DNA of 64,000 bases, taken from Candidatus Bathyarchaeota archaeon. Lineage in GTDB: Archaea > Thermoproteota > Bathyarchaeia > Bathyarchaeales > Bathycorpusculaceae. Below are positions 5,565-57,780 of this stretch, piece by piece. The stretch covers positions 512,001 to 576,000 of the forward strand of contig CAWEPZ010000011.1 of NCBI GenBank assembly GCA_963811105.1, written 5' to 3'. Position 1 is the first letter of the stretch. Each line of letters opens with the position of its first letter. A program made the position numbers and the translations under genes. Under the pieces are notes generated by a model. It ran no database searches. It was given only the letters and a program-made list of their open reading frames with translations, and was not told where the DNA came from.

Positions 5565-5605
5565 TGGCAGGGATCTAATCTCGAGCCCGCTTTAGACTTC
5601 ACCCT
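5565..5605 (-). repeat. Degenerate tRNA-3'-end mimic (att-like)
   Basis: TGGCAGGGATCTAATCTCGAGCCCGCTTTAGAC resembles the copies at 8080 and 14221. Confidence 0.4.
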
Positions 5606-5733
5606 CAAATCCCTTTTTGTCTTAGAATTATGTGAATACTTTCAAAGAGGTTAACAGGGAAAAAAACCTAAACTAATAATAGAATGACAATCTGAACAGC
5701 TGAATGTTTGAAATAAAAAAAAGGTTATGAAAT

Positions 5734-6030
5734 TCATCGATTGAGTTTTCTTAAGATCAGCAGTCCAATTATTGCGATTGCAATGATAATTGCTATTACT
5801 CCAGCGATTACAGTTGTCACTACGGTGTTGTTGACTGCATCTAAGTTTGCAGGTGCTGTTGTCGGTGAAGCTGAAGCGCTTCGACTACGCCTACTGCGGT
5901 TTCTGCCCATGAACTGCCATAAGATTCATCGCCAGCGAAGGCAGCGGTAACGACGTATTTCCCTGGTATGTCTGGCTTCCAAAGATAATTAAATGTTCCA
6001 CTCATGTCACTTGTAACAGTAGCAATATGT
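5734..6030 (-). pseudogene. C-terminal remnant of a large surface protein (Ig-like segment plus TM anchor), frameshifted
   Basis: TSDMSGTFNYLWKPDIPGKYVVTAAFAGDESYGSSWAET, then shifted frame ..VIAGVIAIIIAIAIIGLLILRK; no N-terminus. Confidence 0.65.
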
Positions 6031-6365
6031 TTTGAGTTTTGAAAAATATTACGGCTTAACCGACACACCAAGTAGGCATTTCATGTATGGATAGTTATGA
6101 TGTTCTTATCCCTCTACCCATTCTGGTTCATTCTATGCTTCGAAACCGGAAAGAAATACAACTTTCCACCGAAGTTCTTCACACTCTTCATTATAGGAGT
6201 CTTGCTGTTGACAATACTTTCAATCATGCAATCGCAAATCCCAGTTTGAAGACGCCGACAATAGCCACATCTATCATGGCTCCGCCTAAAGTTTGGTCAA
6301 TTGAAAAAACTAAGTCGAATCCAGATAGGCTTAAGTCTCCATGTGATTTATCAGAATTTGATCCA

Positions 6366-7388
6366 TTATTTGAAACTCTGTTCAATTTCTCTTCTAGTCT
6401 TGGAGCCTAACTTAATTGGGGCATCCTGTAACCATGGGATATACTCCCATTTCCAAATCATGTTGTTTGCATCATGCTCAGCCATCGCGTGGTTCGATGT
6501 GTTTACAAACACAACAGGATGTTTGCTGTCTACAAAATAGTATTTGACAGGATGTTCGGGCGCCGGTGGAGGAGTTTTGTCTCCGTGAATTGAATCTGAA
6601 TTCATTGCCTCCTCATAACTGTATATCCCTTCGAAGGTAAACCAGTCACTTGCCGGATCCTTCCTGACAAGAATTTTAAATGACTCAAGATCCATCACCC
6701 TACCATAAATTAATCGTCGCAAGCCTGTGTAAATAGAATTCAAGATCCCGTGCTGACGAAGTCTTTCATTGTTAAAAAGAAGGGAGACCTCCATTTCATA
6801 AGATCCGTCTTGGTTGATAGGTCCTTTTGCACAGTGGACTTCGCGAATGAAGTTTTTTAAGGCGTCAACGCTCGGCTGATATATAACTGGTATCATCCTG
6901 TCGTCTTGCACATCCAATTGTACATCGAAAATATTATTTTGGCTCTTCGATGGATGGTCCAACTCATTTACTATCTCAAGGTACAAGCCGTAAATTATTG
7001 AATTTGTGATTTCGACTCCTTCTATTGCCCACTCCCAGATCCAATGTTTATCATCAAGCTGAAAGACCCATCGATTCTTTGGGCCTTCTTTTTTATTTGG
7101 AATATTATTTCTCGCAGTGTACATCTCGGTTTTGGGTTCTGAAGGTTTTCCCGAAATCTCAAAGCCCAGCATGTACCGAAGCATAACTTCTTTTTGCATG
7201 AAACTGCTAAGTATTGTTTGGGTGCTTCTGATAACAATCAAAGACTTATTGTCTAGAGTTCTTGCATAACTAACCGTGCAATTATCTGAGTCCCAAAACT
7301 CTTCCTTACCAGTCCAAGAAAACCTGCCAAAGTAATCAACCTGCCATTTCTTTTCTTTAACGGTGAACCAAACCGGCTTTGAAATCAT
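6366..7388 (-). CDS. Hypothetical protein
   Basis: Long ORF; likely start at MISKPVWF; 'VFVNTSNHAM' motif; function not recognised. Confidence 0.7.
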   Translation of the reverse strand: MISKPVWFTVKEKKWQVDYFGRFSWTGKEEFWDSDNCTVSYARTLDNKSLIVIRSTQTILSSFMQKEVMLRYMLGFEISGKPSEPKTEMYTARNNIPNKKEGPKNRWVFQLDDKHWIWEWAIEGVEITNSIIYGLYLEIVNELDHPSKSQNNIFDVQLDVQDDRMIPVIYQPSVDALKNFIREVHCAKGPINQDGSYEMEVSLLFNNERLRQHGILNSIYTGLRRLIYGRVMDLESFKILVRKDPASDWFTFEGIYSYEEAMNSDSIHGDKTPPPAPEHPVKYYFVDSKHPVVFVNTSNHAMAEHDANNMIWKWEYIPWLQDAPIKLGSKTRREIEQSFK

Positions 7389-8079
7389 TATTATCCTAAG
7401 TAATGTTAAAGCTTGAACTATTTGATGCTTCTTCTTCGAGCCTAATATTAGTTCCAAAAATTGAATTAAATGTCGATATGGTAGGGCTTTTGAGACGTGC
7501 CTCGTATAAACAAGGTGCAATTTCTAAAACTAAATTGAGTTTTCACATATCTTGCAAGTAATTATTTTATTCACGATAAGTAGCCAATCGGATAAAGCAA
7601 AAGTAACATGTTGCATCCACTATCAAATCATTTCGAAATGTTTTTTCATCTTCAAATCCAATATTATGGCTGTCTTTTCGTGCCAACCTGAAGGATCAAC
7701 AAGAGCTTCAGTTTTGTGATTATTGCTTAATCTTTCTAGCCACCCATTTTGCAGGACTTTGTAAAAAGAAAAAGATAGCTCCGAACTCTCCATGTCAGGA
7801 TATCGAAGCTTTACAGAATTAATCATCCTGCATTGAGGTCTATTAAAAAAAGAAGCCATCTAACCAGCATTCCCGGTCAACCGCTGAGGCACCAAATATG
7901 TTTACTTGACTGACTGAGATTCTCCTCCAACCACACTTATCTGTTAGGAGAATTGCCATTTGCATCTTTAATGCCGTTTGCAGTCCAAATTCAGGCTGCT
8001 CTCTTTCGAGGTTAGGATGCACGGAGTAGAAAGTCTCATTTCAAGCTTAATTTTAAAAAATTAGGTGGAATTGTGTGCC

Positions 8080-8116
8080 TGGCGGGGATAGCTATGAGCC
8101 CTCGTTTGAACCCTCG
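8080..8116 (-). repeat. tRNA-Arg 3'-end mimic (att-like cassette boundary)
   Basis: 8085-8116 matches 14225-14256 at 31/32 nt; last 12 nt TTTGAACCCTCG are identical to the tRNA-Arg T-arm (18167-18178). Confidence 0.8.
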
Positions 8117-8275
8117 CGTGGTTTATGCCAATAGCAAAGATGAAAAGCAGAACAAAGCTAATTATCCGAAGTAATTGAAGAGTCATAGTTTAGATATCAC
8201 TTGTAAACCCTTGCGCTTGGTATCAAGCTGCCTTAATTTTTATAGTTGAGAATTAACTTGTAATGGGGGAAGCAT

Positions 8276-9370
8276 TTGCCCAAGCAGACAGCTTTTGATT
8301 CGGATGAGGTTCTGGAAAAGGAGAAACAGGCTCATGAAGTAATAAAAGCGTGCCGAACAGATCGAGGTTTCAACGCTAGCACCCATCTTTATCATCAGCT
8401 TTGGCTAAGAGACCTTGTTTACTCGGAAGATGTCCTGCTACAACTTGGGTACCAAAAAGATGTTGAAAATCACTTGTCCGAATTTGTAACGCTGCAGCGC
8501 AGTAGCGGCCAGATCCCGACCGTTATTGATTACAGTGTAAGCAAAGTGATTCGTCAAAGATATCAGCGCTGCTCAGCTGATGCGGAAATTTTGTTTGTCA
8601 TTGGGATGCAAAAGCTCGTAGCTGTTGGGTGTGACGAGTTTCTTGATGAAAATTTGGAATCGGTGAAATTGTGCCTTCCCTTTATCGAGAATAAGCTGGA
8701 TCCGCATAGGCTTATTCCCGGCATGGATTGGAGGGATGCAATGCCAGTTTATGTAGGCAAGTACCTTTTAGCAAACCAGATGCTGTTGGCTGAAATGTAC
8801 GAATTGCAGGGAAACTTGTCGGCGTCAAATTTGGTTAAGGAAAACGTGAACAAGCTATTTTATTGTGGAGATTTAGGTTGGTATGCGGACAGCATTCATT
8901 GGAGGGGAAATGAGCTAAAACTAGATCGCCATTTTGACTGTCTTGGCAACGCTTTAGCAATCCTCAATGGAACAGCTTCGAAAAAAGTTTCACAAGACAT
9001 ACTTAGGGGGTTTAATGTTGCAAAAACGCCTTTCGGCTACAGAAACATCATGCCATACTACGTGTTCAACAGAGAGAAGGCACTGGCAACATGGTACAAG
9101 ACATGCCGAGTACCGTTTGCCGTATTCCTCAGAAACCGGATTGGCAAATACCAAAACTCAGCGATTTGGCCTTTTGTCGAGATAAGAGTGATTGATGCAC
9201 TAAAAAAATTGCAGACAGAAAATGAAGCTGAAGCAGCAGCTAACATAATGATTAAACGCAAAGAATTCAACGAGTTCTACGATCCAACAACTGGCACGCC
9301 TGAAGGAAGCGAAGGGCAGCTCTGGACAGCAGCCGCAACACTTTTGGTAATTAATTATTTCAGGTCTTGA
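8276..9370 (+). CDS. (alpha/alpha)6 glycoside hydrolase (amylo-alpha-1,6-glucosidase/invertase-like)
   Basis: WLRD, DWRD, YQNSAIWPFV and EFYDPTTGTPEGSEGQLWTAA motifs. Confidence 0.75.
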   Translation: MPKQTAFDSDEVLEKEKQAHEVIKACRTDRGFNASTHLYHQLWLRDLVYSEDVLLQLGYQKDVENHLSEFVTLQRSSGQIPTVIDYSVSKVIRQRYQRCSADAEILFVIGMQKLVAVGCDEFLDENLESVKLCLPFIENKLDPHRLIPGMDWRDAMPVYVGKYLLANQMLLAEMYELQGNLSASNLVKENVNKLFYCGDLGWYADSIHWRGNELKLDRHFDCLGNALAILNGTASKKVSQDILRGFNVAKTPFGYRNIMPYYVFNREKALATWYKTCRVPFAVFLRNRIGKYQNSAIWPFVEIRVIDALKKLQTENEAEAAANIMIKRKEFNEFYDPTTGTPEGSEGQLWTAAATLLVINYFRS

Positions 9371-9611
9371 AAACAATGGAACATTGATTCTATAACTTAT
9401 TTGTTATCGAAGTTTTACTCGTGTTATAACTTTGAGGTTTGCCATTTGAAAACTCAATCTGTAGCGGCTTTGATTCAGAAACTGAAAGTAAAGTAAAAAC
9501 TTCATTAATTCGTTAAAATATTAGTACATAAGCTATTTTCTATTTTTTTTCCTTCGTCGTTATTATAGCAATCGAGGTTTTCGGTTGAATAATTGACAAA
9601 TTATGTTTAAA

Positions 9612-9638
9612 GCGGGCGGGGAAAATTATGGACCCTCG
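9612..9638 (-). repeat. Direct repeat of tRNA-Arg 3' end (att-like)
   Basis: GCGGGCGGGGA-N9-ACCCTCG with the same spacing as 18152-18178. Confidence 0.75.
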
Positions 9639-9644
9639 GGTATG

Positions 9645-9763
9645 GGGTCGTACTGGACTCAACCCCCACGGTATGAATTCCTAACTCAAATCCTATTGAA
9701 TAATACTTATCTTGGTAGATTTTGGCCATGTTTGAAGGTGCCCGTCGCCATAGTACTCAAAAG
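9645..9763 (+). repeat. Dispersed repeat R1 (cassette-end sequence)
   Basis: Homologous to 54320-54344 + 56161-56248 (split by an IS); both lie just right of an att-like site. Confidence 0.65.
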
Positions 9764-9861
9764 TAAATATTATTTACCATAATCATGTGACTACACAAAC
9801 ATAGTAACATATTATTGTTTGTTTGAAACGCTTAACTTTTGATTTGCAAGAGGGCTATCAA

Positions 9862-11025
9862 ATGAAGGCTGAACCTTTTGAAATCAACATTTCGCAAGCA
9901 GTACTTGATGACCTTAGAGAACGCTTAACGCGTACACGATGGCCAGACGAGGTCACGAACGCAGGGTGGGATTATGGCACAAGTTTAAGTTATCTTAAAG
10001 AGTTCGTTAATTACTGGCAAAACGAATTTGACTGGCGCAAACAAGAGAAAGAGCTAAACAAATTTCCACAATTTAAGGCCGAAATTGATGACTTAAGCCT
10101 TCACTTTGTTCACGTTCGGGGTAGAGGACAAAATTCACTGCCTCTAATTCTTTTTCACGGTTGGCCTGATTCGTTCTATCGCTACTACAAAGTTATTCCG
10201 ATGTTGACTGACCCAGAAACGTTTGGAGGCGATTCAGCAGACTCTTTCGATGTTATTGTACCATCGCTTCCAGGGTTTGGATTCTCTGATCGCCCAAACA
10301 GTCGGGGCTACCGGCTTGCAGATTCAACCGAGAAATGGGCGAAGTTAATGAGTAAGGTGCTTGGTTACCAGAAATACGGAGTAGTCGGAGGAGACACTGG
10401 TAGTACGGTTGCTCAATTATTAACTCTGGCGCACCAGGAGGCAGTAGTTGGTGTTCATCTAACAGACTGGGGGCGCTGGCAAACCACAAACGAATCATAT
10501 CCAAATCTTACTCCGGCTGAGCAACAATACATTGGAGCATCACAGGGGTGGTTCTTTCAGGAAGGTGCATATGCACTCCTCCAATCCTCGAAACCCCAGA
10601 CGCTTGCCAATGCTTTAAACGACTCACCAGCTGGTTTGGCCTCCTGGATCTTAGAGAAGTTCTATAAATGGAGCGACTGCCAAGGAGATTTGAGTCGAAG
10701 CTATAACAAAGATGAACTAATCACAAACATAATGATCTACTGGGTCACCCAAACAATCAACTCATCATTTCGCCCTTACTACGAAGAAGCCCATAATCCT
10801 TCACTTGCCTTTGGAAAACGAATCGATCTGCCAGTAGGAATGTCGCTATTCCCCAAAGATCTTCCTCAGGGGCCTATGATGCCGCGCTCCTTGTCTGAGA
10901 GGGTCTTAAACATCCAACATTGGACGGAGATGCCGCGCGGCGGCCATTTTGCTGCTCTAGAAGAGCCAGATTTGTTCGTGAAAGATGTGCGAGATTTCTT
11001 CAGTAAAATTCTTTCGGAGTCATAA
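9862..11025 (+). CDS. Epoxide hydrolase (EHN N-terminal domain plus alpha/beta hydrolase)
   Basis: HGWP oxyanion motif, PSLPGFGFS, GGDTG nucleophile elbow, GGHFAALEEP. Confidence 0.92.
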   Translation: MKAEPFEINISQAVLDDLRERLTRTRWPDEVTNAGWDYGTSLSYLKEFVNYWQNEFDWRKQEKELNKFPQFKAEIDDLSLHFVHVRGRGQNSLPLILFHGWPDSFYRYYKVIPMLTDPETFGGDSADSFDVIVPSLPGFGFSDRPNSRGYRLADSTEKWAKLMSKVLGYQKYGVVGGDTGSTVAQLLTLAHQEAVVGVHLTDWGRWQTTNESYPNLTPAEQQYIGASQGWFFQEGAYALLQSSKPQTLANALNDSPAGLASWILEKFYKWSDCQGDLSRSYNKDELITNIMIYWVTQTINSSFRPYYEEAHNPSLAFGKRIDLPVGMSLFPKDLPQGPMMPRSLSERVLNIQHWTEMPRGGHFAALEEPDLFVKDVRDFFSKILSES

Positions 11026-11188
11026 ACTTCTTGCTAAAGCCATTTCTTAGATTGTTGGCAGGAGAAGAAACGATAGGTGAGCAAGTTTTAGTTTCAAACC
11101 CATCCTTCCAACAGACTGTGTGAAAACTATGTTAGGTTTTCGATAGAATGATAGTTTTATATGTATAATTGAGTGATATTAGCTATAT

Positions 11189-11374
11189 ATGCCTAAGAAA
11201 ATAGTTTTTGAGCCAGCAACAGAAATCAAAGTCACCGGAATAATAGGCTTCCTAAAAAGAAAAGTAACAGCCTACGGAACAGGCGCCAAAGTCACCTGCC
11301 CAAAAGAATACCTCGGCAAAACAGTCTACATAGTCATAGTAGATGAACCTGCCGAAGGAGACGAACAGCAATGA
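11189..11374 (+). CDS. DUF2080-like transposase-associated small protein
   Basis: RKVTAYGTGAKVTCPKEYLGKTVYIVI; overlaps the transposase start (ATGA). Confidence 0.8.
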   Translation: MPKKIVFEPATEIKVTGIIGFLKRKVTAYGTGAKVTCPKEYLGKTVYIVIVDEPAEGDEQQ

Positions 11375-12834
11375 GCGAACACGTTGACGGAACACACCGA
11401 GACCAAACCATACTCTTCCCAGACACCCTCGACAAATACGTTGATGCAGAAAACCCAGTCAGGTTCATTGACGCCTTCATAGACAGCCTCAATCTAGAGA
11501 AGCTCGGCTTCAAACACTCAATTCTTGCTGACACAGGAAGACCATCTTACAATCCTTCAGACCTTCTAAAACTCTACACATATGGCTATCTGAACCAGAT
11601 CCGGTCCAGCAGAAAATTTGAAAGAGAATGCTACCGCAACGTCGAGGTAATGTGGTTAATGAAGAAGCTCGCTCCAGACCACAAAACCATTGCCGACTTC
11701 AGAAAAGACAACGTCGACTGTATAAAGCCTGTATTCAAAGAATTCGTCTACCTATGCCGATCACTCGACCTCTATGGTGCTCAGCTCATTGCCATAGATG
11801 GCAGCAAATTCAAGGCTGTAAACTCGAAGAGCAACAATTTCAACGAGAACACAGTTGCGTTGAGACTTAAACGGACCGAGGAGAAGATAGCAGAATACCT
11901 CAGGCTGATGGATGAGAATGACAAAGCCGACTCAGGCAAAAATGATAGCCTCAAAGTCAATGACCTTAAAGAAAGGATAGGCCGGCTTGAAGAGAAAAAG
12001 CAGCAGTACGAGCATGCTCAGAACCAGATGAAGGCGACAGGGCAGAAGGAGGTTTCGCTTGTGGATCCAGATAGCCGTTTGATGCGAGTCGACAGCCAAA
12101 GGCTGGATGTTTGCTATAATGTCCAAACGTCTGTGGATGCCAAGAAGCATCTCATTGTGGATTATGACGTGATAAACAATTCAACTGATCACCATCAATT
12201 AGTCAACGATGCTAAAGCAGCAAAGCAGACTCTTGGAGTTGAAAGATTGGAGGTAACGACCGACAAAGGGTTCTATGTTATGAAGGATTTGAAAGATTGT
12301 GAGGCTGAAGGCATAACTGTGTTTATGCCCATTCCTGCAGTTGTGAATCCGCATAAGCGTTTTGGGGTGCCGGAGCCTGGATTCTATACTGACAGGTTCG
12401 TGTATGACTCGGTTAGGGACGTTTATGTTTGTCCTGCTGGTGAGGATCTGGGGTTTTGGAAGTGCCTTCATAAGGGTAAACCGGAGCGAGGCAGAGTTTA
12501 CAAGACGCTTTGTTGCGAGGTGTGTGGTTTTAGGAGCAAGTGCACTAGGAATAAGCGTGGCAGGATTATTTTTAGGGGGGAATTCGAGGACGCTGTTGAA
12601 CGGCTCAGATCACGGTTGGGAACTTCTGAGGGAAAAGAGAAGTTGCACCGTAGAAGGGAGATAGTGGAGCATCCTTTTGGATCCATGAAGCGGGCTTTCA
12701 ATCAGGGTTATTTGCTCTTGAAGGGGCTTAGGAAGGTTAAAGGAGAGGTTGGGTTTACGATGTTGGCTTACAACATGCGAAGGGCTATCAACATTCTTGG
12801 GGTTGGCGTGTTAATGGCTTTAGTAAAAGCATGA
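11371..12834 (+). CDS. IS1182-family DDE transposase
   Basis: GRPSYNP..LLKLY.YGY..SSRK, IDGSKFKA, TDKGF, CPAG, VEHPFG motifs. Confidence 0.93.
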   Translation: MSEHVDGTHRDQTILFPDTLDKYVDAENPVRFIDAFIDSLNLEKLGFKHSILADTGRPSYNPSDLLKLYTYGYLNQIRSSRKFERECYRNVEVMWLMKKLAPDHKTIADFRKDNVDCIKPVFKEFVYLCRSLDLYGAQLIAIDGSKFKAVNSKSNNFNENTVALRLKRTEEKIAEYLRLMDENDKADSGKNDSLKVNDLKERIGRLEEKKQQYEHAQNQMKATGQKEVSLVDPDSRLMRVDSQRLDVCYNVQTSVDAKKHLIVDYDVINNSTDHHQLVNDAKAAKQTLGVERLEVTTDKGFYVMKDLKDCEAEGITVFMPIPAVVNPHKRFGVPEPGFYTDRFVYDSVRDVYVCPAGEDLGFWKCLHKGKPERGRVYKTLCCEVCGFRSKCTRNKRGRIIFRGEFEDAVERLRSRLGTSEGKEKLHRRREIVEHPFGSMKRAFNQGYLLLKGLRKVKGEVGFTMLAYNMRRAINILGVGVLMALVKA

Positions 12835-13133
12835 AAAAAGGCAAGACGAAAGCAACTATCAATTACAGACGAGTTTGAAGGTCAAGTATAATTCTTTCTA
12901 ATCCTAAGTTTTTACACAGTCTGCCAAGGGTGCAAATCCCAGCGGTCCGTTAAGTGAGAACTTGAAGATGAACCGCAAAGGACAGTGACGAAACACATAG
13001 AGGAATTAGCCTTCCTTGCCAAAATTATGATGGTGTCATAAGGAGCTTCGAAGGCTACACTATTGAATCAATCTTTGATTCAATTCAAGAAATAAATAAA
13101 GGAGCTTACTTGGTTACTAAGACCTTAGCCCTC

Positions 13134-13640
13134 TTATTCCCCGAGTACTGTGAATGCATAGTATAGATGAATAGCTAGAAGAATAAACAGGGTTGCTGCA
13201 AAGATTAAATGGATTTTAGAAGCCCATTTCCACTTCAAGGCTCGTCTCAACACAAGGGGATTAAGGCTTGCTGTAACCCAAGCTATTGCAGCAACAGAGA
13301 ATCCCAGAACTCCATGCATACTTCTAACAAAAGCAATGTTTCGAATTACTAAGCCGAAAATGAATTCTCCAGTCAGATACGCGGCCATTGTAACGACTAC
13401 CAACTTATGAATCGGCAAAGGCTTAACGCCAGCAATGCGCCCAAAGCGACCTGAAACCAAGAACCCTGCAGCTAGCGTTGCCATGACCAGAAGAAAACTT
13501 ATTCCGCCTAAAGAGCAATGAAATTCAAACCCTCCTTCTCCACCACCATTGTCCTCTGCCTGAGCCTGCACTCCAGTTATTGCTATCGAAACAAAGAGAA
13601 TTGACAATAAAATGACTAATATTAAGGGGGTTAGTTTCAA
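13134..13640 (-). CDS. Four-TM membrane protein with His residues (cytochrome b561-like?)
   Basis: Signal peptide plus 4 TM helices each containing His. Confidence 0.6.
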   Translation of the reverse strand: MKLTPLILVILLSILFVSIAITGVQAQAEDNGGGEGGFEFHCSLGGISFLLVMATLAAGFLVSGRFGRIAGVKPLPIHKLVVVTMAAYLTGEFIFGLVIRNIAFVRSMHGVLGFSVAAIAWVTASLNPLVLRRALKWKWASKIHLIFAATLFILLAIHLYYAFTVLGE

Positions 13641-13793
13641 CTGGAGAACCTTCCAATGATTTTTTCTAAACCCACATCAAAGTACAGAACATATAAAAGT
13701 ATGTGACTGCAACCCGACAACAATAGCTTAGAAGCAAGCTGCAGGCAATTAGTTGCCAACTGCTAGCTCGTAAGGGTTCTTATGGCTTGGTGA

Positions 13794-13919
13794 CAAAGCC
13801 AAGGCTTCGGCTTAGCTGTAATTAAGCGCATGACTGAATCGTTAGGCGGCACTGTCTCTTTTGAGAGCCAAGAGGGCAAAGGAACAACTTTTACAATACG
13901 TTTGCCGCCAAAGAGATAA
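13794..13919 (+). pseudogene. Histidine kinase C-terminal (HATPase) fragment
   Basis: QGFGLAVIKRMTESLGGTVSFESQEGKGTTFTIRLPPKR*, nearly identical to the tails of the other kinases in the window. Confidence 0.85.
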
Positions 13920-14220
13920 ACCGTAAATGTGCATTCAAGTAGGAAAGCCTTCTGAATAAAATCATGTAACATCATGAAATCACTCTTTTCTTTTCATCGG
14001 AATTCTTGGAGGCTCGAACTTGCAATGACGAGGGCTCTATCGGACCCGGCCCTGAAAGAGTCTGAATCATAGTCTTTATGTCATTCATGATTAAACTTAG
14101 TTGCAATTATATTCAGCAGTTGATGAGTGAGAGGATTCAAACCAAACAATTTTCCTGAAATATCCTATTATTATGTCAGAAAACCAAAATTAGCCTTTTG
14201 TTGTGGTGGTATTGTTAAAA

Positions 14221-14256
14221 GCGCGGGATAGCTTTGAGCCCTCGTTTGAACCCTCG
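14221..14256 (-). repeat. tRNA-Arg 3'-end mimic (att-like cassette boundary)
   Basis: See 8080 copy; GTTTGAACCCTCG is the exact reverse complement of 18054-18066. Confidence 0.8.
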
Positions 14257-14582
14257 GGTCGTAATGGCGTTGAAGACCGCACTCCCAACTTTTGGGTGAA
14301 GGGGGCGAAAACTGAAACAAATTGGAGATAACGCTCGCCCAAATATGTGGCGCAGTAGATATAGCTTTAACCTTAAAAAACTACCTCTTTGGTTAGTTAC
14401 CCTCTGCTCGCCGGATCTATGATTGACGATGTAGAAAAGAAAAAGAGCGTGCGGATTCCTTCTTGCAGGTTTAACTATTTTTCACTACTGAGCCGTGCTT
14501 GCACCCGCGCGCACACGCACCTTTAGGTTTTTTGAGCAGCTTTGCCATCTGCATGACTTGGGTAGACGAGAACGGTCCAGTA

Positions 14583-14711
14583 TTAATTTTTTCTCTTATT
14601 CCATCTGCGGTTACCAGGTGGTCCTATAAGAAAATAACCTATTAAAATAAGAGCAATGGTTACAACGATAATTATTACAATTGTTACTTCAGTCGTTACT
14701 CTCACCTCCAT
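14583..14711 (-). CDS. Small single-TM peptide (42 aa), copy 1
   Basis: MEVRVTTEVTIVIIIVVTIALILIGYFLIGPPGNRRWNKRKN*; paralog at 56773-56898 with conservative changes. Confidence 0.7.
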   Translation of the reverse strand: MEVRVTTEVTIVIIIVVTIALILIGYFLIGPPGNRRWNKRKN

Positions 14712-14749
14712 TTTTAGTGTCTAAGTCTAAACACTTCCATTTAGCGCGA

Positions 14750-14931
14750 GCGTAATTTTTTTCGGTGTTTAGTGCTTCAACCTGGAACTTTTTTGGCAAT
14801 GACGAAAAGGATGATTCATTAACGACTTTTTTGCCATCCACTTCTATCTTGATGTATTTTAGAAACGCGCTCGCATTAACAATAATGGTGTGTTTTTCAT
14901 TTTCTCCTATTTCAAACTTAGCTTTTGTCAT
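14750..14931 (-). pseudogene. Truncated hypothetical beta-rich protein
   Basis: MTKAKFEIGENEKHTIIVN...IEVDGKKVV then runs into unrelated sequence; more deleted at the paralogous locus ~56925-56980. Confidence 0.45.
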
Positions 14932-14978
14932 TTACAAATACCTCTCATATGTGCTTTTCATTTCTTGGCGAAGAGCCT

Positions 14979-15722
14979 TTACTTCCATTTTGTCAATATT
15001 TCCTCCCTTTGGAAAGTCTTGGTGCTGACAAAGAAAAGCGCCACATCAACAGCTAAAATTATACCTGAAATTATGAGCAGGCTGTTTACGTCAAGGGTTA
15101 TTATGCTTGTCTCGCTGAGAAGGTATATGCCCAGAAGGGGGAAGAGGATAAAAACTCCAAAACTGTTAGCGCTGCGCACATCATTAACTCTCGATGAAAC
15201 AATAACGGCAAACAGAACACTCATAACAACGGCAGCCGGCATCAGAACTAACAGCAAAGTGGCGATGTTCCAGTTTGGAAAATAATAGGTGCCAAGCGTA
15301 TGGAAAGTAGCTTCATCAATGCCCACCATGAAAACTGCTGCCGCCGCATACATTGCGACTAAAGTTGGAATAATTGCGGAGATGGCTTTTCCAAGCAATA
15401 TTTCTCCATCAGTAAGGGGAGTGGCTAAAAGCGGTTCTAGGCTTTTCTCTACTTTCTCCCCCACTATACTGTAGGAGGCAATTCCCAAGGGAACGTAGGC
15501 TGCTCCTATGACTAAAAAGAAGGAAAAGGAGGTAAGCAAATTTGGAAGCACAGTCGGCGCTGCGAGTCCGTGGTTCCCCCTTATTGTTAAATATTCCAGT
15601 ATCACGGGAAACAGGACCGAGATAACAACCGGGAAAATAATGATAGAGGTCCAGACGTTTTTTACTCGCCTAAATATCTTGAAATCCCTAGCTGCAACAA
15701 TCCACGCCTTTGAGAGCCGCAT
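14979..15722 (-). CDS. ABC-2 type transporter permease
   Basis: SIVGEKVEKSLEPLLATPLTDGEILLGK; 6 TM. Confidence 0.92.
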   Translation of the reverse strand: MRLSKAWIVAARDFKIFRRVKNVWTSIIIFPVVISVLFPVILEYLTIRGNHGLAAPTVLPNLLTSFSFFLVIGAAYVPLGIASYSIVGEKVEKSLEPLLATPLTDGEILLGKAISAIIPTLVAMYAAAAVFMVGIDEATFHTLGTYYFPNWNIATLLLVLMPAAVVMSVLFAVIVSSRVNDVRSANSFGVFILFPLLGIYLLSETSIITLDVNSLLIISGIILAVDVALFFVSTKTFQREEILTKWK

Positions 15723-15724
15723 AT

Positions 15725-16642
15725 TTATTTCCTCACAAGTTTTAGATAGGTTTCTTCCAAAGTTGAGCCTACCACATTGATTGATTTGACATGACCGCCC
15801 GCCAGCACTATAGCCTCTATAACAGGTGAATTTTCCTTGTCTGGGTTTTCCACGTCGAACGTTATTGTGTCGCCGCTGGTGGACAGGTTTTTGAGTGCCA
15901 GTTTTTTCAATGCCCCCAAAACTGCATCGTTCACTTGCTGCTCTAATCCAATAACTGTCTTTTTGCCGCTAACGGACCTTTCAAGTTCCTGCGGAGTCCC
16001 AATTGCCCTAAGACTCGTATGCATTATTGCTACCTTGTCGCAGATTCTCTGCGCCTCGTCGAGGTTGTGGGTGTTTAGAAAGATTGTTTTCTTCTCTTTT
16101 TTTAGTTGAAGAATGAACTCTCGGACTGTTTTTGAAGCCTCAGGATCTAGATTCGCGGTAGGTTCGTCCATGAAAATGACTTGCGGTTCATGAATTAGGG
16201 CGCGGGCTATGGCGAGTTTTTGTTTCATGCCCTTGGAAAAAGTTCCTGCCAAAACGTTTCTCTTATCCCAAAGCCCCAACATCTCAAGAAAACGCTGGAT
16301 GTTCTCTTTTCTTTGGGTTTCCGGACAATCGTATATCTTTGCAAAAAAGTCTAGGTTGTCGTAGGCTGTCAGATTTTCAGATAATCCAACGTTATCAGAG
16401 ACAAACCCGATGATTTTGCGGATTTTAATTGAGTCTTCCTTTTTTCCTATGTCATAGCCGCCTACGCTTGCGTTCCCACTAGTTTTGGATATTAGGCAAC
16501 AAAGCATTCTGACAGTCGTAGTTTTCCCTGCGCCGTTCGGACCAAGAAAACCGAAGACTTCGCCATCGTTAACATGAAGAGTGAGATTGTCTACGGCTGT
16601 TAGATCCCCAAACTTTTTTGTAAGGCCCTCAGTATCTATCAA
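15725..16642 (-). CDS. ABC transporter ATP-binding protein
   Basis: GPNGAGKT, FSKGMKQK, MDEPT, THN motifs. Confidence 0.95.
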   Translation of the reverse strand: MIDTEGLTKKFGDLTAVDNLTLHVNDGEVFGFLGPNGAGKTTTVRMLCCLISKTSGNASVGGYDIGKKEDSIKIRKIIGFVSDNVGLSENLTAYDNLDFFAKIYDCPETQRKENIQRFLEMLGLWDKRNVLAGTFSKGMKQKLAIARALIHEPQVIFMDEPTANLDPEASKTVREFILQLKKEKKTIFLNTHNLDEAQRICDKVAIMHTSLRAIGTPQELERSVSGKKTVIGLEQQVNDAVLGALKKLALKNLSTSGDTITFDVENPDKENSPVIEAIVLAGGHVKSINVVGSTLEETYLKLVRK

Positions 16643-16717
16643 TGCGATTACCCCTTGGACTAACGCAGCCCATTGTTTGTTAGTAAGAGGCTGGTGTTTT
16701 ATAAATAAGGTTCCACG

Positions 16718-16734
16718 GGTACAAAATTTGTACC
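16718..16734. promoter_or_regulatory. Palindromic operator candidate between divergent ABC and regulator operons
   Basis: GGTACAAA-A-TTTGTACC next to TTTATAAA. Confidence 0.5.
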
Positions 16735-16793
16735 GGGAAGATAAAAGTCAAAAGAGCCGTAGCACTCAGATATAGCAATTAAGGAGCTAAAGT

Positions 16794-17465
16794 ATGGTCG
16801 AGGACATTTCACCAGAGCATATTAAGCGGGTCGCAGAAAAAGCCCTAGTTATAGAACAGTACATAATAGAGAGAGCTTGGGGACTCTGTTATGCTGCAGT
16901 CGCCGCTGAAATTGTCCTTATAACTTTTCTGCCCTCGATTATCCTATTCCTTGGGGTTTCAGCTGGCTATTTTCTTGTTGTTGCGATCGTGGTTAACACA
17001 GCGGTGAGCATTGTGGGCGCTGCCATGATTGCCTGGATTTTCAAGAAGGCTTATAACTCCATGCTCGTACGCAGGGAAATTATGGATTCAATATGGACTA
17101 AATTGCTGAGGCCTTCGTGGATAGCGTTAGTTTGGACAGCCTACTATTTGCCGGTTCTTGCCGCAATTTTCTTGCTGCGCCACGAGTTTTTGGTTTTTAG
17201 ATTCGGACTTTTGGCCACAACAGTGATTCCGTTATTCTTTGCGTTTAAAGGTTCGTTCCCTGAGCGACTACCACGAGAAAGTATAGCTGTTGTGTCGGCA
17301 TTAACTATTTACACGTTAGGGGGTTTTGTTGTTTCTCTCATAAAAGCCAATGCGGGCTTTTACCTGATTCTTTGGGTAATCTTTCTTGTAATTCTTGTCT
17401 GGGCTTCTGCATATGCACGCAGACGGAAACCTCCCATCTCTTTGGAGGAACCCCAAAATTGGTAA
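16794..17465 (+). CDS. Membrane protein (about 6 TM)
   Basis: GGAG SD; hydrophobic; overlaps the downstream wHTH gene. Confidence 0.75.
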   Translation: MVEDISPEHIKRVAEKALVIEQYIIERAWGLCYAAVAAEIVLITFLPSIILFLGVSAGYFLVVAIVVNTAVSIVGAAMIAWIFKKAYNSMLVRREIMDSIWTKLLRPSWIALVWTAYYLPVLAAIFLLRHEFLVFRFGLLATTVIPLFFAFKGSFPERLPRESIAVVSALTIYTLGGFVVSLIKANAGFYLILWVIFLVILVWASAYARRRKPPISLEEPQNW

Positions 17466-17800
17466 CTGACGAACAACCCAACTTCAAAATCCCCATCACA
17501 GACACGATTAAATCATTAAACGAGCAGCTAAACGACCCTACCTTCAAATCATCAACCAGAATACTGATTTTGATCCTGCTTGCAATGAACAAGAAGTTGA
17601 CTTCTGTGGAGTTGCGTTCTTTCGTAGGGTTGGGAAAGGGTAGTTTGGAAAATCATTTGTCAAAGCTGGAGGCGGCTGGCTTAATCAGAGTTCGGTCGGT
17701 TAAGTCTTGGGGTGGCATGCACCAGGTTGTGGAGATAACTGAAAAGGGTCTGGAAGATTGCAGGTCGATACTTAAAAAAATTCACAGCTTGAATATATAG
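17459..17800 (+). CDS. Winged-helix transcriptional regulator (ArsR/MarR-like)
   Basis: RILILILL..LT..ELR..GLGKGSLENHLSKLEAAGLI..VEITEKG; TTG start after GGAGG. Confidence 0.85.
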   Translation: MVTDEQPNFKIPITDTIKSLNEQLNDPTFKSSTRILILILLAMNKKLTSVELRSFVGLGKGSLENHLSKLEAAGLIRVRSVKSWGGMHQVVEITEKGLEDCRSILKKIHSLNI

Positions 17801-18053
17801 AAATGGGATGTCAAAAAATAGTTTTAGTCCATATTCATTACCAATACGAGCAACAAGATTCCTGAGGCCAACATATAGGAATAAATTGAGAAAAATCCCA
17901 TGACTAAAAAGAAGACGCCAAAGAACAAAACGCTTCTAGCCTTGTTATCATACGTAAAATTTAGTCAGAAAAAGGGTGAGTGAAGAATCACCTTTGCGTA
18001 TTGATTCCCGTCCCAATAGCTTCACTTGCACTGGGTAATTTTGCGTGTTTACC

Positions 18054-18066
18054 CGAGGGTTCAAAC
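18054..18066 (+). repeat. Inverted 13-bp T-arm motif downstream of tRNA-Arg
   Basis: CGAGGGTTCAAAC; related GAGGATTCAAAC at ~14131 in a homologous context (both followed ~30 nt later by GTCAGAAA). Confidence 0.65.
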
Positions 18067-18149
18067 GCTGAATTGAAAATGTAACCGATAACGAGAGTCA
18101 GAAAGCAGTAATTCTGATAGAAATAGCTTTATTTGCAGAAATAAGGCCG

Positions 18150-18281
18150 TGGCGGGCGGGGAGGGATTTGAACCCTCGACCCCCAACTTAGGAGGCTGGT
18201 GCTCTCTGCGGGGAAATATCAGAACAAAGCGGTAATCCCCTCTTTGCGAGAATTTTCCTATCCGTACTGAGCTACTCGCCC
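18150..18281 (-). tRNA. tRNA-Arg(CCT) with non-canonical 54-nt D-loop intron (about 18206-18259)
   Basis: Spliced: GGGCGAG TA GCTC AGTACGGATA GAGC A CCAGC CTCCTAA GTTGG GGGTC GAGGG TTCAAAT CCCTC CCCGCCC G CCA; relaxed bulge-helix-bulge at the junctions. Confidence 0.9.
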
Positions 18282-18337
18282 ACGACAAAGCTAAGTTTGG
18301 CTAGCTAAACAAATACCTATCGACCAACTTTTTAAAA

Positions 18338-19195
18338 TTGAGAAGGTAGCCATTTTCTTCGAAGGAAAAGGAAAACAGCCTAGTACAATAGATTCATTCC
18401 TTAGGATTGCGGTTTTAGCTAGAAAAGCAAACTTGGACAATCCTCAAGAAGTAGAATTAGCAATCGCCAGACTAAGGAAGACTCACCTGAGTACCAAGAA
18501 ACTAGCCAACGTACCTGTTTCAAACACATACAAAGCAAAGTTGTGCTTCACATATCAACACTATACTAAATTCTATAAGATATTCTGGGAAGTGCCTCAG
18601 TATGTAGAGGAAGAGCGAAGCATCTAGCGACCGTCAGACGAAAAATGCCAGAACTAGTAGCATTTGCAAGAGGCGCCTTATCGCTGATGACTGACATTAG
18701 CGTTCGAACAGGATTAAGACCAATCGAAGTTCAAGGCTACGATGGATTAAGAGTGAAGGATATTCACTTTGACCAAAGTACAATTACAGCCTTAAGCATT
18801 AAAGGATGCAATGCCAGACGACAATGCAAATAACTGAAGAGTTAACAGCTAAACTTAGAACGTACATAACCATTCGCAATCTTCGAGAAAATGATTACCT
18901 GTTCAAAGGAGACGCTCGAAGATATGGGGAGCACTTCCGAAGAGCGAAACTAATTAGCCAAAAAACTCCAAGACCCAACGATTAAAAACATACTGCTTTA
19001 CGATTTGAGGCATCACTATATCGCACAACAATTAAGAAAAATACAAAATGTCGAATTTGTACGCCAAATAATAGGGCACAAACGTTTGGATACCGCACAA
19101 AAATAATTTCACCTTCTTGCAAATACAAACGGAGAACGGATAGTGGAAGGCACAACGGACAAAGAACGAGCAAGCACTGAACAAACGAGGAAATG
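18338..19195 (+). pseudogene. Tyrosine recombinase/integrase pseudogene
   Basis: TGLRPIEV, LRVKDIHF, YDLRHHY and IIGHKRLDTAQK* motifs spread over several frames with stops. Confidence 0.88.
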
Positions 19196-19397: not shown

Positions 19398-20384
19398 TTG
19401 TATGAAGATTTTGATGAAGCGTTCATTGCGACTGATTGGGATTTGACTATTATACACTGGAACAAGGCTGCCGAAAGGATTACAACCGTTAAAGCCAAAG
19501 ATGCTCTAGGAAAGAAGATTTACGATGTCCTACCTGAAATGACTACAGTTGACGTTACACCTTACTTAACTTTGCTTCAACAAAGAAAGCACGCACGTTT
19601 TATGATGAACACAATTAGCAGAGAAACTCAAAAACCATCGATATTTGAGATTTCAATGTATCCTTCTGAACAAGGAATCATAGTAGTCGTTGAAGACAAG
19701 ACTGAGGAAGAAAAAACAAAGAGGCTATCCGCTATTGGTGCAACTGCTGGCATGGTTGGTCATGACATCCGCAATCCACTACAAGCAATTATTGGAGATA
19801 TTTTCTTGCTTAAGCAAAATCTCTTATCAATTCCAGAATCAGAAACAAGAAAAGAAGTTGCTGAGAGTTTAGACAACATAGAGACAAATGTTAATTATAT
19901 TAACAAGATTGTGGCTGACTTGCAAGACTATTCTCGTTCAATAAATCCAGAGTATTCAGAATTTAACTTAAAGGATCCGATTAATAGCATTTTACAATCG
20001 GTTAATCGCCAAAATAATCTAGATATTTCATTGAATATCGAGCCCTCGTTTAATATCACTTCAGACCGCTCAATAATTAGGCGCATCTTGACCAATCTAA
20101 TTGTTAATGCGATTCAAGCCATGCCAAATGGAGGCAAACTGATACTAAACAGCAACAGAAAGGACAATAATATACTGATTACGGTAGAAGATACTGGCAT
20201 TGGGATTCCTGAGGATATTAAGCCTAAGCTGTTCTCACCTATGGTAACAACCAAGGCGAAAGGTCAAGGACTAGGTTTAGCGGTTGTTAAGCGCCTTGTT
20301 GAAGCATTGAATGGAACTATTACTTTTGAAAGCCAAGAAGGAAAGGGAACAAAATTCATTATTGCGTTGCCGACTAGTAATTAA
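19398..20384 (+). CDS. PAS-domain sensor histidine kinase
   Basis: PAS (WNKAAERIT), HDIRNPL, N/G1/G2 boxes; frame open upstream to 19302 (possible ATT19308 start). Confidence 0.93.
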   Translation: MYEDFDEAFIATDWDLTIIHWNKAAERITTVKAKDALGKKIYDVLPEMTTVDVTPYLTLLQQRKHARFMMNTISRETQKPSIFEISMYPSEQGIIVVVEDKTEEEKTKRLSAIGATAGMVGHDIRNPLQAIIGDIFLLKQNLLSIPESETRKEVAESLDNIETNVNYINKIVADLQDYSRSINPEYSEFNLKDPINSILQSVNRQNNLDISLNIEPSFNITSDRSIIRRILTNLIVNAIQAMPNGGKLILNSNRKDNNILITVEDTGIGIPEDIKPKLFSPMVTTKAKGQGLGLAVVKRLVEALNGTITFESQEGKGTKFIIALPTSN

Positions 20385-20495
20385 CCGCTTTCTCAAGAAA
20401 TAAAAGACCTAAAATATCATAACTAGACAGCGACAATAGAAATATAGTGATTAAGAATGCGTGGAACACACAAGAGTAAAAAATTACAAAGCCTA

Positions 20496-20528
20496 AGGCT
20501 GGGCTCTATCCTATTGAGCTACTCGCCT
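20496..20528 (-). repeat. Intron-less copy of the tRNA-Arg 5' half (att-like)
   Basis: AGGCGAGTAGCTCAATAGGATAGAGCCCAGCCT versus mature GGGCGAGTAGCTCAGTACGGATAGAGCACCAGCCT. Confidence 0.8.
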
Positions 20529-21383
20529 AATCCTTTTTTTAAAATTGTGCTTGGATTTGTCTCTCCTTTGTCAACATTAACTTTTTGACCAATGTGACCC
20601 ACTCTTATCTGAATTGATGGGATGCTCTTCCTTGGGCATTTAATCAAGTTTTTTCTGAATATGACAGAAGGACTGCTGATGATTCTCAAACCCTGACTCA
20701 CCATTCAACCTGCCTTAGTATTGTCTAGCTCTATCATAATTTATTGTTCCACTCTTATTATAGAAAAACTAGATAGAAGATAACTTCATATTTCACATTC
20801 AAACCTTACAAATGTAATCTTCATATTTGCTCCCAAGTTCGAGCTGAGTGGTAGATGAGCTATTTAATGACCATTAAAACAAATCTTGGGAGAGCTGAAG
20901 GAAAGAAAGAATTTTGATTTTTAACCAAGAATAAGAATGATGCGTTAAGAGACAGCTATAATGCTACTATAGCAGTAGGTTGTATATTTTTACTTGCGCC
21001 CTATCATTTTTAATTAGAATATATGGTTCGTTTAACTTTATTTTGAATTCACCCTTATTTTTAGTTACCTTGGTGTAGTTTATGCCGCTTTTGATGTAAA
21101 GAGATTGATAGTTAATAATCAAAAGAGAGAAGCTGGTGTTTTGGTTGTTATTTTGATAATAGTGGTAATGGTTGCGTTACTGTTTACAATGCTAAGCCCG
21201 CTCTTCTGGGTTATTGAATAAGTTTGGTGTTTATAGCTAAAACTCTATACAATACAGCAATAAAACACAAACCTTTTGAAATATGTTCTAAATATGCAAA
21301 TCAGCTTAGATACATCATTTAGAATAGGCCGCTAATAACTAGTTTTGAGTACAAAAAGAAAACAAAAATTTTAAAGCATACTT

Positions 21384-32380: not shown

Positions 32381-32493
32381 TGGCGCCGGGAGGGGGATTT
32401 GAACCCCCGCGGCCCCGAAAGGCCACAAGCTGCTTGGTGCTGCTTTCGCAAGCATCTCCAGGCTTGCTCCCTGCCTGGCTAGGATACCCCGGC
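32381..32493 (-). tRNA. tRNA-Ser(GGA) with canonical 24-nt intron (32432-32455)
   Basis: GCCGGGG acceptor stem, CAAGC-CTGGAG|intron|A-GCTTG, long variable arm, GGGGG TTCAAAT CCCCC, encoded CCA. Confidence 0.93.
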
Positions 32494-54292: not shown

Positions 54293-54421
54293 TTATAACA
54301 TTATCTAAAAACACGAGTAGGTCGTACCGGGCTTAACCCGTAATCAGACTGTGTGAAAACTATGTTAGGTTTTCGATAGAATGATAGTTTTATATGTATA
54401 ATTGAGTGATATTAGCTATAT

Positions 54422-54607
54422 ATGCCTAAGAAAATAGTTTTTGAGCCAGCAACAGAAATCAAAGTCACCGGAATAATAGGCTTCCTAAAAAGAAAAGTAA
54501 CAGCCTACGGAACAGGCGCCAAAGTCACCTGCCCAAAAGAATACCTCGGCAAAACAGTCTACATAGTCATAGTAGATGAACCTGCCGAAGGAGACGAACA
54601 GCAATGA
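54422..54607 (+). CDS. DUF2080-like transposase-associated small protein
   Basis: Identical to 11189-11374. Confidence 0.8.
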   Translation: MPKKIVFEPATEIKVTGIIGFLKRKVTAYGTGAKVTCPKEYLGKTVYIVIVDEPAEGDEQQ

Positions 54608-56569: not shown

Positions 56570-56772
56570 TGTTCCACCTCCACCCTCTTCGCTTCCAACT
56601 TTGCTACTTCCACTTTGGCCCGTGCTGCCTTGTTCCGATATTTACGGCTGAAAGATTACGGGTTAGTTAGCTAAACTTTTAATCTTTTGCGCTGGCGATG
56701 CAGTTTCAGGTTTTTGAGCACCTTTGCCACCTACAGTGACTTTGGTAGACGAGAAGACTCAGTATTTTTTTC

Positions 56773-57778: not shown

Positions 57779-57780
57779 AT

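Follow-up and report, generated by a model that had tools for sequence, protein, structure and literature searches.

How did a tandem array of gene blocks come to lie beside a tRNA-Arg gene of an uncultured archaeon, when every block is bounded by partial copies of that tRNA and none encodes an integrase? The array occupies positions 5565-18150 of the window analysed here, a stretch of 64,000 nucleotides (nt) from Candidatus Bathyarchaeota archaeon (C11:512001-576000 of genome G000, 3.49 Mb in 15 contigs), whose genes include the archaeal markers eIF-1A and L35Ae. An earlier reading of the sequence alone had proposed an integron-like system, in which the tRNA serves as attachment site and a divergent integrase gene marks the recombinase. 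We compared the locus with 27 loci of relatives and 18 metagenome contigs. On these comparisons, the array is likely a tRNA-anchored flexible island that grew by serial integration and now consists of integrase-less blocks flanked by attachment sites (att), resembling cis-mobilizable elements (CIMEs); some of the blocks, those carrying a conserved att module, probably move through integrases supplied in trans.

Partial copies of a tRNA-Arg gene divide the array

Near 18 kb, no tRNA was reported by default ARAGORN or by Rfam at the gathering threshold. The minus strand of 18150-18281 can be read as a tRNA with an interruption in the D-arm, Rfam at an E-value threshold matched its 3' part (18161-18209, 24.7 bits), and ARAGORN in intron mode returned a tRNA at exactly 18150-18281, forcing the intron into the anticodon loop and misnaming the gene. 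Intron-less orthologues in genomes G056, G001, G012 and G072 have an identical 56-nt 3' exon and are called tRNA-Arg(CCT) by ARAGORN, and contigs of relatives aligned to the window jump 54 nt at ~18204-18259. Because of these orthologues and skips, we identify the anchor as tRNA-Arg(CCT) with a non-canonical intron of 54 nt. The gene, the copies of its 3' end and the blocks between them are as follows.

18150-18281, minus strand: tRNA-Arg(CCT) gene (ARAGORN intron mode, Rfam match to the 3' part, intron-less orthologues, contig joints)
18150 to ~18205, minus strand: tRNA-Arg 3' exon, att of the downstream array (copies in the array)
~18204/18206 to 18259, minus strand: non-canonical D-arm intron, 54 nt (joints skipping 54 nt)
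~18258 to 18281, minus strand: tRNA-Arg 5' exon, att of an upstream element (repeats on the 5' side)
18051-18067, plus strand: inverted T-arm motif, right arm of an inverted repeat, 98 nt before the tRNA 3' end
14221-14262, plus strand: composite att mimic GCGCGGGATAGCTTTGAGCCCTCGTTTGAACCCTCGGGT, boundary of block 2 and the ABC-type block, holding the left arm of the inverted repeat at 14243-14259 (repeat pair D3, inverted repeat, genus scan)
9612-9638, plus strand: decayed att mimic, 21/27 to the tRNA end, boundary of the glycoside hydrolase (GH) block and block 2 (repeat family D1, G009, contig L115)
8078-8122, plus strand: composite att mimic, 92% to the 14225 copy, boundary of block 1 and the GH block (repeats, contig ends)
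5565-5595, plus strand: weak, heavily decayed att mimic, distal end of the array (equivalent position L021:229-290 in G020)
14221-18150: ABC-type proximal block (ABC transporter genes and a winged helix-turn-helix regulator)
9612-14221: block 2 (epoxide hydrolase, insertion sequence, 168-amino-acid protein, histidine kinase stump)
8078-9612: GH block (glycoside hydrolase)
5565-8078: block 1 (a 384-amino-acid protein as its main gene)

Same-strand copies of the tRNA 3' end thus stand at 14221, 9612 and 8078, with a weak one at 5565, as the sequence-only reading had listed them (with 8080 for 8078). A repeat search grouped 8078, 9612 and 18152 into one family (D1; 27 nt, 74-78% identity, one strand) and paired 8085-8122 with 14225-14262 (D3; 38 nt, 92%, same strand). 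The T-arm word TTGAACCCTCG occurs 8 times with at most one mismatch, against 0.9 occurrences expected. When the genome was scanned without gaps for the 27-nt tRNA end, the copies at 9612 (21/27) and 8078 (20/27) came within the best 26 of ~7 million positions, the rest of the 26 being tRNA 3' ends by the look of their sequence (some of them checked as tRNA genes); the top-ranking mimics have the Arg-specific acceptor stretch in common. The copy at 14221 contains an indel, visible in the alignment, and the one at 5565, weak in the window, has a clearer counterpart of ~50 nt at the same position in G020. Similarity of the left flank near the distal end of the array stops at 5500. The inverted repeat bracketing the proximal block, first described as 13 bp, is real and longer, with 17 perfect nt (14243-14259 / 18051-18067); the homologous flanks reported at ~14131 dissolve, in an alignment of ~40% identity, into the short string GAGAGGATTCAAACC. 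These data support the motifs as att-like scars of the tRNA 3' end. The inverted repeat was also considered as the ends of a transposon with terminal inverted repeats, a reading that we rejected because the sequence past the right arm does not continue the tRNA-like target.

Genomes differ at the att copies

The blocks are present or absent at the att cores. In G020 the GH gene is followed by the tRNA after ~190 nt, and G001 has the same arrangement; since the GH gene stands directly beside the tRNA in these genomes, ~9612-18150 of the window counts as inserted DNA by comparison. The 9612 mimic and the flank to its left recur, better preserved, in G009. On metagenome contig L115 the GH gene is followed by a single hybrid att, which begins like the 9612 mimic, with the left flank of that copy as far as GCGGGCGGGGA, and continues as the right-hand part of the 14225 composite mimic; an ABC-type block comes next. 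This one att stands in place of the attL, block 2 and attR of the window, and we read it as the empty site for block 2 (9.6-14.2 kb). Contig L123 is 88% identical to 8302-8081 and its similarity ends at the mimic, and the loose ends of further contigs fall at 8079, 8114, 14227, 14246 and 14304. The expectation that differences between genomes break at the motifs was therefore borne out by G020, G001, G009, L115, L123 and the loose ends. At the position of block 1, between its two mimics, G020 has a PIN-domain (VapC-like) gene and a small upstream open reading frame (ORF). Sequencing runs were compared through their assembled contigs, the best run containing 0.28 of the words; a joint from 7889 to 10806 was set aside as too weak (one contig, a 45-nt side, likeness <95).

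The same site is in use across the genus. The tRNA-Arg 3' exon was matched in 54 of the 61 genomes searched, many with extra partial copies nearby; in stretches of ~19 kb from 20 relatives, 10 had at least one further same-strand partial copy (19-53 nt, 94-100%), and G012 has three additional att cores. Array content is nearly all different from species to species. In G019 the array fills the 29 kb between a core DEAD-helicase gene and the tRNA; G020 and G059 likewise have a DEAD-helicase gene on the far side of the array. Cargo in relatives comprises UbiA prenyltransferases, an oligopeptide ABC transporter, PALP enzymes, MFS and EamA transporters and histidine kinases, together with defence and toxin genes (HicB in G046, AbiV in G060, the PIN-domain protein in G020). 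Blocks may be as small as 0.68 and 1.16 kb, lying between repeats of 32-56 nt (G046). One block of the G115 array (L077, G115:C14, 6690-14373) contains a cbb3-type cytochrome oxidase cluster (COX1, FixO/cytochrome c, cytochrome c assembly protein).

The ABC block is nearly identical in other species

The proximal block contains a unit with a distinct history.

14515-18077: ABC block, apparently a recently exchanged unit (near-identity to G012 and G059)

Positions 14515-18077 are 97.5% identical to G012, and 14515-18205 are 98.1% identical to G059, i.e., the similarity to the latter continues through the tRNA 3' exon. As a baseline, 18 kb of window DNA next to the block was compared with the same two genomes, where its best matches reach 65-79%, except for a 477-nt stretch at 88%. 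G000 and G059 have the block adjacent to the tRNA, G012 at a distance of 10 kb and between two composite mimics. None of the copies in the window, G012 and G059 has an integrase, and the far end of the G059 copy shows, by eye, a decayed mimic (...GGCAGGAATATTTGAACCCTCACC...). That mere conservation along the species tree produced 98% identity is unlikely, and the ABC block appears to have been exchanged recently between species. The claim that the blocks are mobile without an integrase of their own hence finds support in at least this one, which seems to have moved between species as an integrase-less unit.

Homologues of the ABC block also occur elsewhere. A paralogue of 85% identity lies at 56391-58700 of the window, beside an identical copy (54345-56156) of the insertion sequence of block 2, and no Arg-type att is close by. 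Other loci with homologues of 78-89% identity are likewise free of an Arg-type att, and at 4 of 8 such loci of relatives another tRNA gene (Met, Val, Leu, Val) lies within ~1.8 kb. As half of these loci contain another tRNA gene, the data suggest that the ABC block is a frequent cargo at other tRNA sites too.

A two-part att module recurs in the genus

The composite mimic GGGATAGCTNTGAGCCCTCGTTTGAACCCTCG, allowing at most 3 mismatches, is present in 21 of 120 genus genomes; the reversed control gave 0. We examined the array DNA of seven of these genomes besides that of the window (G012, G019, G063, G070, G076, G115, G120), and in 6 of the 7 the mimic stands on the tRNA strand, no more than 30 kb from a tRNA-Arg 3' copy of at least 45 nt. 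The inverted T-arm CCCGAGGGTTCAAACG is found 97-98 nt before the att core TGGCGGGCGGGGA in seven copies, six of them independent, in the window, G059, G012 (three copies, one of which precedes the real tRNA), G115 and G070. Among the six independent copies both motifs and their spacing are near-invariant, and the ~70 nt in between have diverged. Because motifs and spacing were kept while the spacer diverged, these data suggest that the module is a functional site, with a putative role in recombination or binding. Upstream of the other junctions of the window (5565, 8078, 9612, 14221) the module is not conserved, the alignment giving ~40% identity. A stretch of ~170 nt after the 14225 mimic was tried as the start of an int(C), the C-terminal part of a split integrase, and rejected, being open for 36 codons only and without an integrase match.

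Integrase-bearing elements use the same tRNA

Relatives carry at this tRNA the kinds of element from which such an array could be built. In G054, an 8.1-kb element with a PF16795 integrase occupies the same tRNA-Arg: its int(C) begins at the distal 45-nt att, and its int(N) is an ATG-started ORF of 63 codons (MKVTCPICN...) that reads into the tRNA in the frame of int(C). It is a genuinely split, 'suicidal' integrase element of the SSV (Sulfolobus spindle-shaped virus) type. The element of G016 measures 5.4 kb and has a 31-nt repeat and, beside the tRNA, a PF00589 integrase of the classical type. Of 120 genus genomes, 48 contain PF16795; among 14 control genomes, Sulfolobus alone does. Of 30 PF16795 loci retrieved, three (G054, G017, G078) adjoin a tRNA-Arg att of at least 45 nt. 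In G060 the first block, of 6 kb, opens with a 42-amino-acid integrase remnant, and on metagenome contig L118 an integrase ends 30 nt before a composite mimic of the 8078 type. The sequence-only reading had set ordinary decayed tandem islands apart by relatives in which blocks have their own integrase, and integrase-bearing parents do occur at this tRNA (G054, G016, G017, G078, L118). The SSV-type layout is absent from the blocks of the window, which contain no int fragments and no ATG-started int(N) running into the tRNA. Viral contigs yielded no relative of the G054 integrase.

Two other tRNA genes of the window's genome show comparable structures. Downstream of tRNA-Thr(GGT) (G000:C11:1099846-1107320) a perfect 47-nt repeat of the 3' part follows after 7.4 kb and forms the start of a PF16795-like int(C), which shares 44% identity with its G054 counterpart; it looks like a recently integrated SSV-type element. 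Downstream of an intron-bearing tRNA-Ser(CGA) (G000:C11:1292052-1302593), part of the tRNA 3' end is repeated three times (28-41 nt, at distances of 4.2, 6.4 and 9.7 kb), and a broken, frameshifted G016-like integrase stands at the far end; this is a second array of the same kind.

The neighbouring integrase is a dead remnant with the other half of the tRNA as its att

The integrase gene noted on the 5' side of the tRNA is present, reading away from it, as a pseudogene.

18295-19175, plus strand: tyrosine integrase pseudogene (frameshift near 18642, 5 TAA stops, homology to the G067 integrase)
19398-20384, plus strand: PAS histidine kinase, cargo of the 5'-side element (Pfam)
20494-20530, plus strand: decayed copy of the intron-less tRNA 5' half, far att (comparison with intron-less orthologues)

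An intact homologue occurs in G067, whose integrase of 340 amino acids shares 47-61% identity with the dead one. It lies 850 nt from the tRNA, between 5'-half att repeats of its own. The gene includes an intron-less copy of the tRNA 5' exon, which codes for amino acids 9-17; another such copy follows 2.3 kb further on. It matches PF00589 alone (33 bits), not PF16795, and has the att-in-ORF layout nonetheless. The frame of the dead integrase begins at the tRNA 5' exon. Searching for this 24-nt exon with at most 3 mismatches found the tRNA itself alone, and the copy at 20494-20530 surfaced only through comparison with intron-less orthologues. Because of this far repeat we regard the dead integrase and the PAS kinase as a separate 5'-side element of 2.25 kb, and because its att is the other half of the tRNA, the integrase is not the recombinase of the array; it reads as the dead remnant of another type of element, lying between 18258 and 20530. 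N-terminal integrase remnants occupy the same place in G012, G050, G068 and G076 (tblastn, 40-86 amino acids) and, by eye, in G020. When the genome collection was scanned for the G067 integrase, a single fragment of 49% turned up apart from its own locus.

The intron that separates the two half-sites is polymorphic in the genus: it is absent from G001, G012, G056 and G072 and 54 nt long in the window, and the tRNA-Arg introns of G020, G067 and G059 have other lengths and sequences. It forms the border between the 3'-half att, whose copies reach up to 56 nt and thus the whole 3' exon, and the 5'-half att, whose copies (window 20494-20530, G067) have the intron-less form. An intron dividing an integration target is noteworthy. 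In G012 (L063, 14990-15320) an open frame runs antisense through the whole intron-less tRNA into the integrase N-terminal remnant (...VAGGEGFEPSTPNLGGWCSIRTELLAQ...IPIDQLFKIEKVA...), and the unrelated G054 integrase uses this same frame to read the 3' att. A further intron-containing gene, tRNA-Ser(GGA) with an intron of 24 nt, is predicted by ARAGORN in intron mode at 32381-32493 (minus strand) of the window, unreported by default ARAGORN or Rfam at the gathering threshold.

Gene content of the four blocks

The genes and fragments of the array are as follows.

6366-7520, minus strand: 384-amino-acid protein without Pfam family, block 1 (Pfam)
8276-9370, plus strand: glycoside hydrolase, weak GH100 / MGH1-like (Pfam)
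9823-11025, plus strand: epoxide hydrolase (EHN and alpha/beta hydrolase), cargo of block 2 (Pfam)
11109-12924, plus strand: insertion sequence (IS) element of 1816 bp, 17-nt terminal inverted repeats, 94% complementary (repeats, Pfam, identical copies)
11371-12834, plus strand: DDE transposase of the IS (Pfam)
~13800-13919, plus strand: histidine kinase C-terminal fragment (end of HATPase_c), block 2 (homology to the end of a G012 kinase)
14979-15722, minus strand: ABC-2 permease (Pfam)
15725-16642, minus strand: ABC ATPase (Pfam)
16794-17465, plus strand: 223-amino-acid protein without assigned family (ORF)
17372-17800, plus strand: winged helix-turn-helix regulator (Pfam)

The contents first assigned to the blocks (regulator and ABC genes, epoxide hydrolase, glycoside hydrolase) hold, save that the supposed membrane protein is the DDE transposase of the IS. 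That no block encodes a recombinase is likewise right as regards integrases: 13 integrase queries found neither an integrase nor a fragment of one in 5565-18150 (tblastn, E<=0.1), and Pfam found no integrase; block 2 does encode the IS transposase. Among array ORFs of at least 80 amino acids there is no Pfam family for replication (primase, helicase, polymerase) or virion proteins. The IS has 100% identical copies at C9:144483 and at 54345-56156 of the window, and one contig joins 11108 to 12925 and represents its empty site; it was inserted secondarily and has no relation to the att sites. The kinase fragment, whose homologue in G012 is the end of the tRNA-proximal kinase, is a sign of decay or truncation within block 2. 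The epoxide hydrolase region has a G+C of 0.44-0.46 against ~0.39-0.42 in its surroundings and was absent from the matches listed from 40 relatives searched (160 further matches being unlisted); it is probably foreign cargo.

How the array may have arisen

Taken together, these results favour, with good though not full confidence, an island grown by serial integration. Integrative elements whose att corresponds to the 3' part of tRNA-Arg(CCT) would have inserted into the tRNA repeatedly, each insertion pushing older DNA outward and leaving a partial copy of the tRNA 3' end. The four blocks of the window would have lost their integrase or never had one. Three of the junctions are old and decayed, and block 2 has been eroded by the IS insertion and the truncation of its kinase. 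The proximal ABC block would be a recent arrival from a family of blocks sharing the conserved module, made up of the inverted T-arm motif, ~97 nt, the att core and the opposite arm; on this reading, exchange between species continues for at least one block family. Its arrival, like that of the others, would have been by site-specific recombination, and integrases supplied in trans by co-resident or incoming elements, of the SSV or the classical type, may be what moves blocks that have none.

Several observations weigh against this account. We infer the decayed state of the four blocks rather than see it, because they have no integrase trace and no replication or virion genes, and the arrays of G019 and G115 hold ordinary cargo only. 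The difference between L115 and the window, an indel between two att copies, could also come from recombination between short repeats, and no circular or excision junction was seen among the assembled contigs (as opposed to raw reads). The left end of the exchanged unit (~14505-14515) is not at an att, and 14279-14505 are 94% identical to an att-less copy in G016:C4; homologous recombination therefore also shapes the blocks. The genome of the window has no second copy of the tRNA-Arg 3' exon, so that no cognate attP-bearing integrase is evident in it, and viral contigs gave no exact match to the tRNA-Arg att or the composite mimic, hence no free element. An integrase lies within 2 kb of the composite mimic in only 1 of 18 metagenome contigs, and the comparisons pinpointed no integrase acting on the composite-mimic module.

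We also considered, tentatively and as distinctly less probable than the island itself, that blocks with composite mimics are a dedicated family of non-autonomous cassettes, each with the conserved module, which integrases of the SSV or G016 type, acting in trans, capture, reorder and pass between Bathyarchaeia species at tRNA-Arg.

A somewhat weaker candidate, in our judgement improbable while deserving attention, is a purely fossil island: dead stumps of formerly autonomous elements that nothing mobilises any longer, the identity of the ABC block having come about by homologous recombination on the tRNA or conserved flanks. This would suit the decay of the att copies at 5565, 8078 and 9612, the erosion of block 2, the ABC block's mosaic structure with its left breakpoint off the att, the extension of the G059 similarity through the tRNA 3' exon, and a genome without a helper integrase carrying this att and without a junction in assembled contigs. 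It fits poorly with an ABC block whose place in the array varies, being the first in G000 and G059 and 10 kb out in G012, with att sites on both sides each time. The inverted T-arm and its spacing, kept while the spacer diverges, suggest selection on the site, and deletion sparing both atts would be an awkward origin for the tiny single-gene blocks between long near-perfect repeats in G046.

The integron-like reading, in which the tRNA acts as attI and the divergent neighbour as a resident recombinase shuffling integrase-free cassettes, fares far worse, and we consider it very improbable. Integrons have a functional IntI-type recombinase by attI and cassettes that end in attC, mostly promoterless and co-oriented behind the promoter Pc. 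The window recalls them in its recombinase-less units by a fixed attachment point with an integrase-like gene directly adjoining the tRNA and pointing away from it; remnants of such a gene recur at the same place in several species, the blocks vary between species at att-like sites, and a conserved att-associated module exists. However, the neighbour is a pseudogene, reduced to fragments of 40-86 amino acids in four relatives, and belongs to its own 2.25-kb element; the only intact copy, in G067, sits 850 nt from the tRNA between its own repeats; the array repeats the tRNA 3' end and not the 5' exon, which is the att of this integrase; and integrase-bearing elements exist at the same site in relatives. 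Integron-type expression logic is absent, since the genes are spread over both strands and have a regulator of their own. The window, with its multi-gene blocks in mixed orientations, has no functional resident integrase and no common promoter and appears to lack attC-type sites, its junctions being direct copies of the tRNA end. Finally, chance or generic tRNA-like repeats between ordinary chromosomal genes, an idea to which the weakness of the 5565 copy taken alone and the synteny of the GH gene in several species lend a little colour, have a negligible probability given the excess of the T-arm motif, the genome-wide rank of mimics with the Arg-specific acceptor stretch, the 21 of 120 genomes with the composite mimic against none in the control, and the breaks of similarity at these sites.

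Relation to known systems and significance

The closest parallel is offered by the CIMEs of Streptococcus, related to ICEs (integrative and conjugative elements) and IMEs (integrative and mobilizable elements). Excerpts of PMC5704250 describe them as units with attL and attR at their ends, devoid of the integration genes they once had and stacked at a tRNA 3' end; they stack, by accretion, because incoming elements enter the att that retains the gene end, and are moved with or by a functional element. The blocks of the window, like the ABC copies of G012 and G059, similarly keep attL and attR and have no integration and transfer genes of their own. They differ in their archaeal host, in the absence of conjugation genes, and in their likely helpers, which would be SSV-type split integrases rather than ICE integrases. 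Mobilisation is here suggested by the identity of the ABC block, the putative empty site in L115 and the integrase remnant in G060. Moreover, some blocks of the window type share a bipartite att module, which those excerpts of PMC5704250 do not describe for CIMEs.

The island also recalls those of Prochlorococcus tycheposons, which, in the portions available of bioRxiv 10.1101/2020.12.28.424599, lie on one side of a tRNA with partial tRNAs between integrations, newer insertions pushing older ones outward, and consist mostly of cargo DNA with scattered partial tRNAs and fragmented integrases; tycheposons are defined there by their own integrase and a replication module. The blocks of the window are flanked by full and partial tRNA copies, and 'tycheposon-like island', a term of the earlier reading, is a fair description; the blocks have neither integrase nor replication module, and belong to another domain of life and to other integrase families. 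More generally, elements with tyrosine recombinases build arrays by re-using one site (excerpts of PMC6563490). SSV-type elements of Sulfolobales, Thermococcales and other archaea carry the att inside the integrase gene, which integration splits into int(N) and int(C) (excerpts of PMC8371274; PMC7253208), and PF16795 suicidal integrases, once integrated, depend for excision on a complete integrase that another element supplies (PMC8371274, same excerpts). This review does not mention Bathyarchaeota in those excerpts, and arrays of the present kind were not found described in the titles and opening lines of abstracts of the papers listed on Bathyarchaeia mobile elements, nor in excerpts of PMC10848311. 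The split layout is seen in G054 at the same tRNA-Arg and at tRNA-Thr in the window's own genome; the four blocks differ from it in having no int(N) or int(C), and the homologue of the dead integrase in G067 matches PF00589 rather than PF16795, although its att likewise lies inside the ORF.

Bathyarchaeia are abundant, uncultured archaea of sediments and soils, whose gene exchange is little known, and 'suicidal' integrases with the att in their gene are known mainly from hyperthermophiles. The comparisons reported here point to one tRNA gene as a genus-wide docking site at which att-flanked blocks are added, lost and passed between species, with metabolic, transport, sensor, toxin-antitoxin and defence genes as cargo. 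'Suicidal' integrases are common in this genus, and one tRNA serves two types of integrase, each using a different half of it. If the att module is functional for integrases acting in trans, this would be a cassette exchange system without a resident integrase; and if there is a dedicated cassette family, it would be an archaeal functional counterpart of integron cassettes, with a tRNA as docking site.

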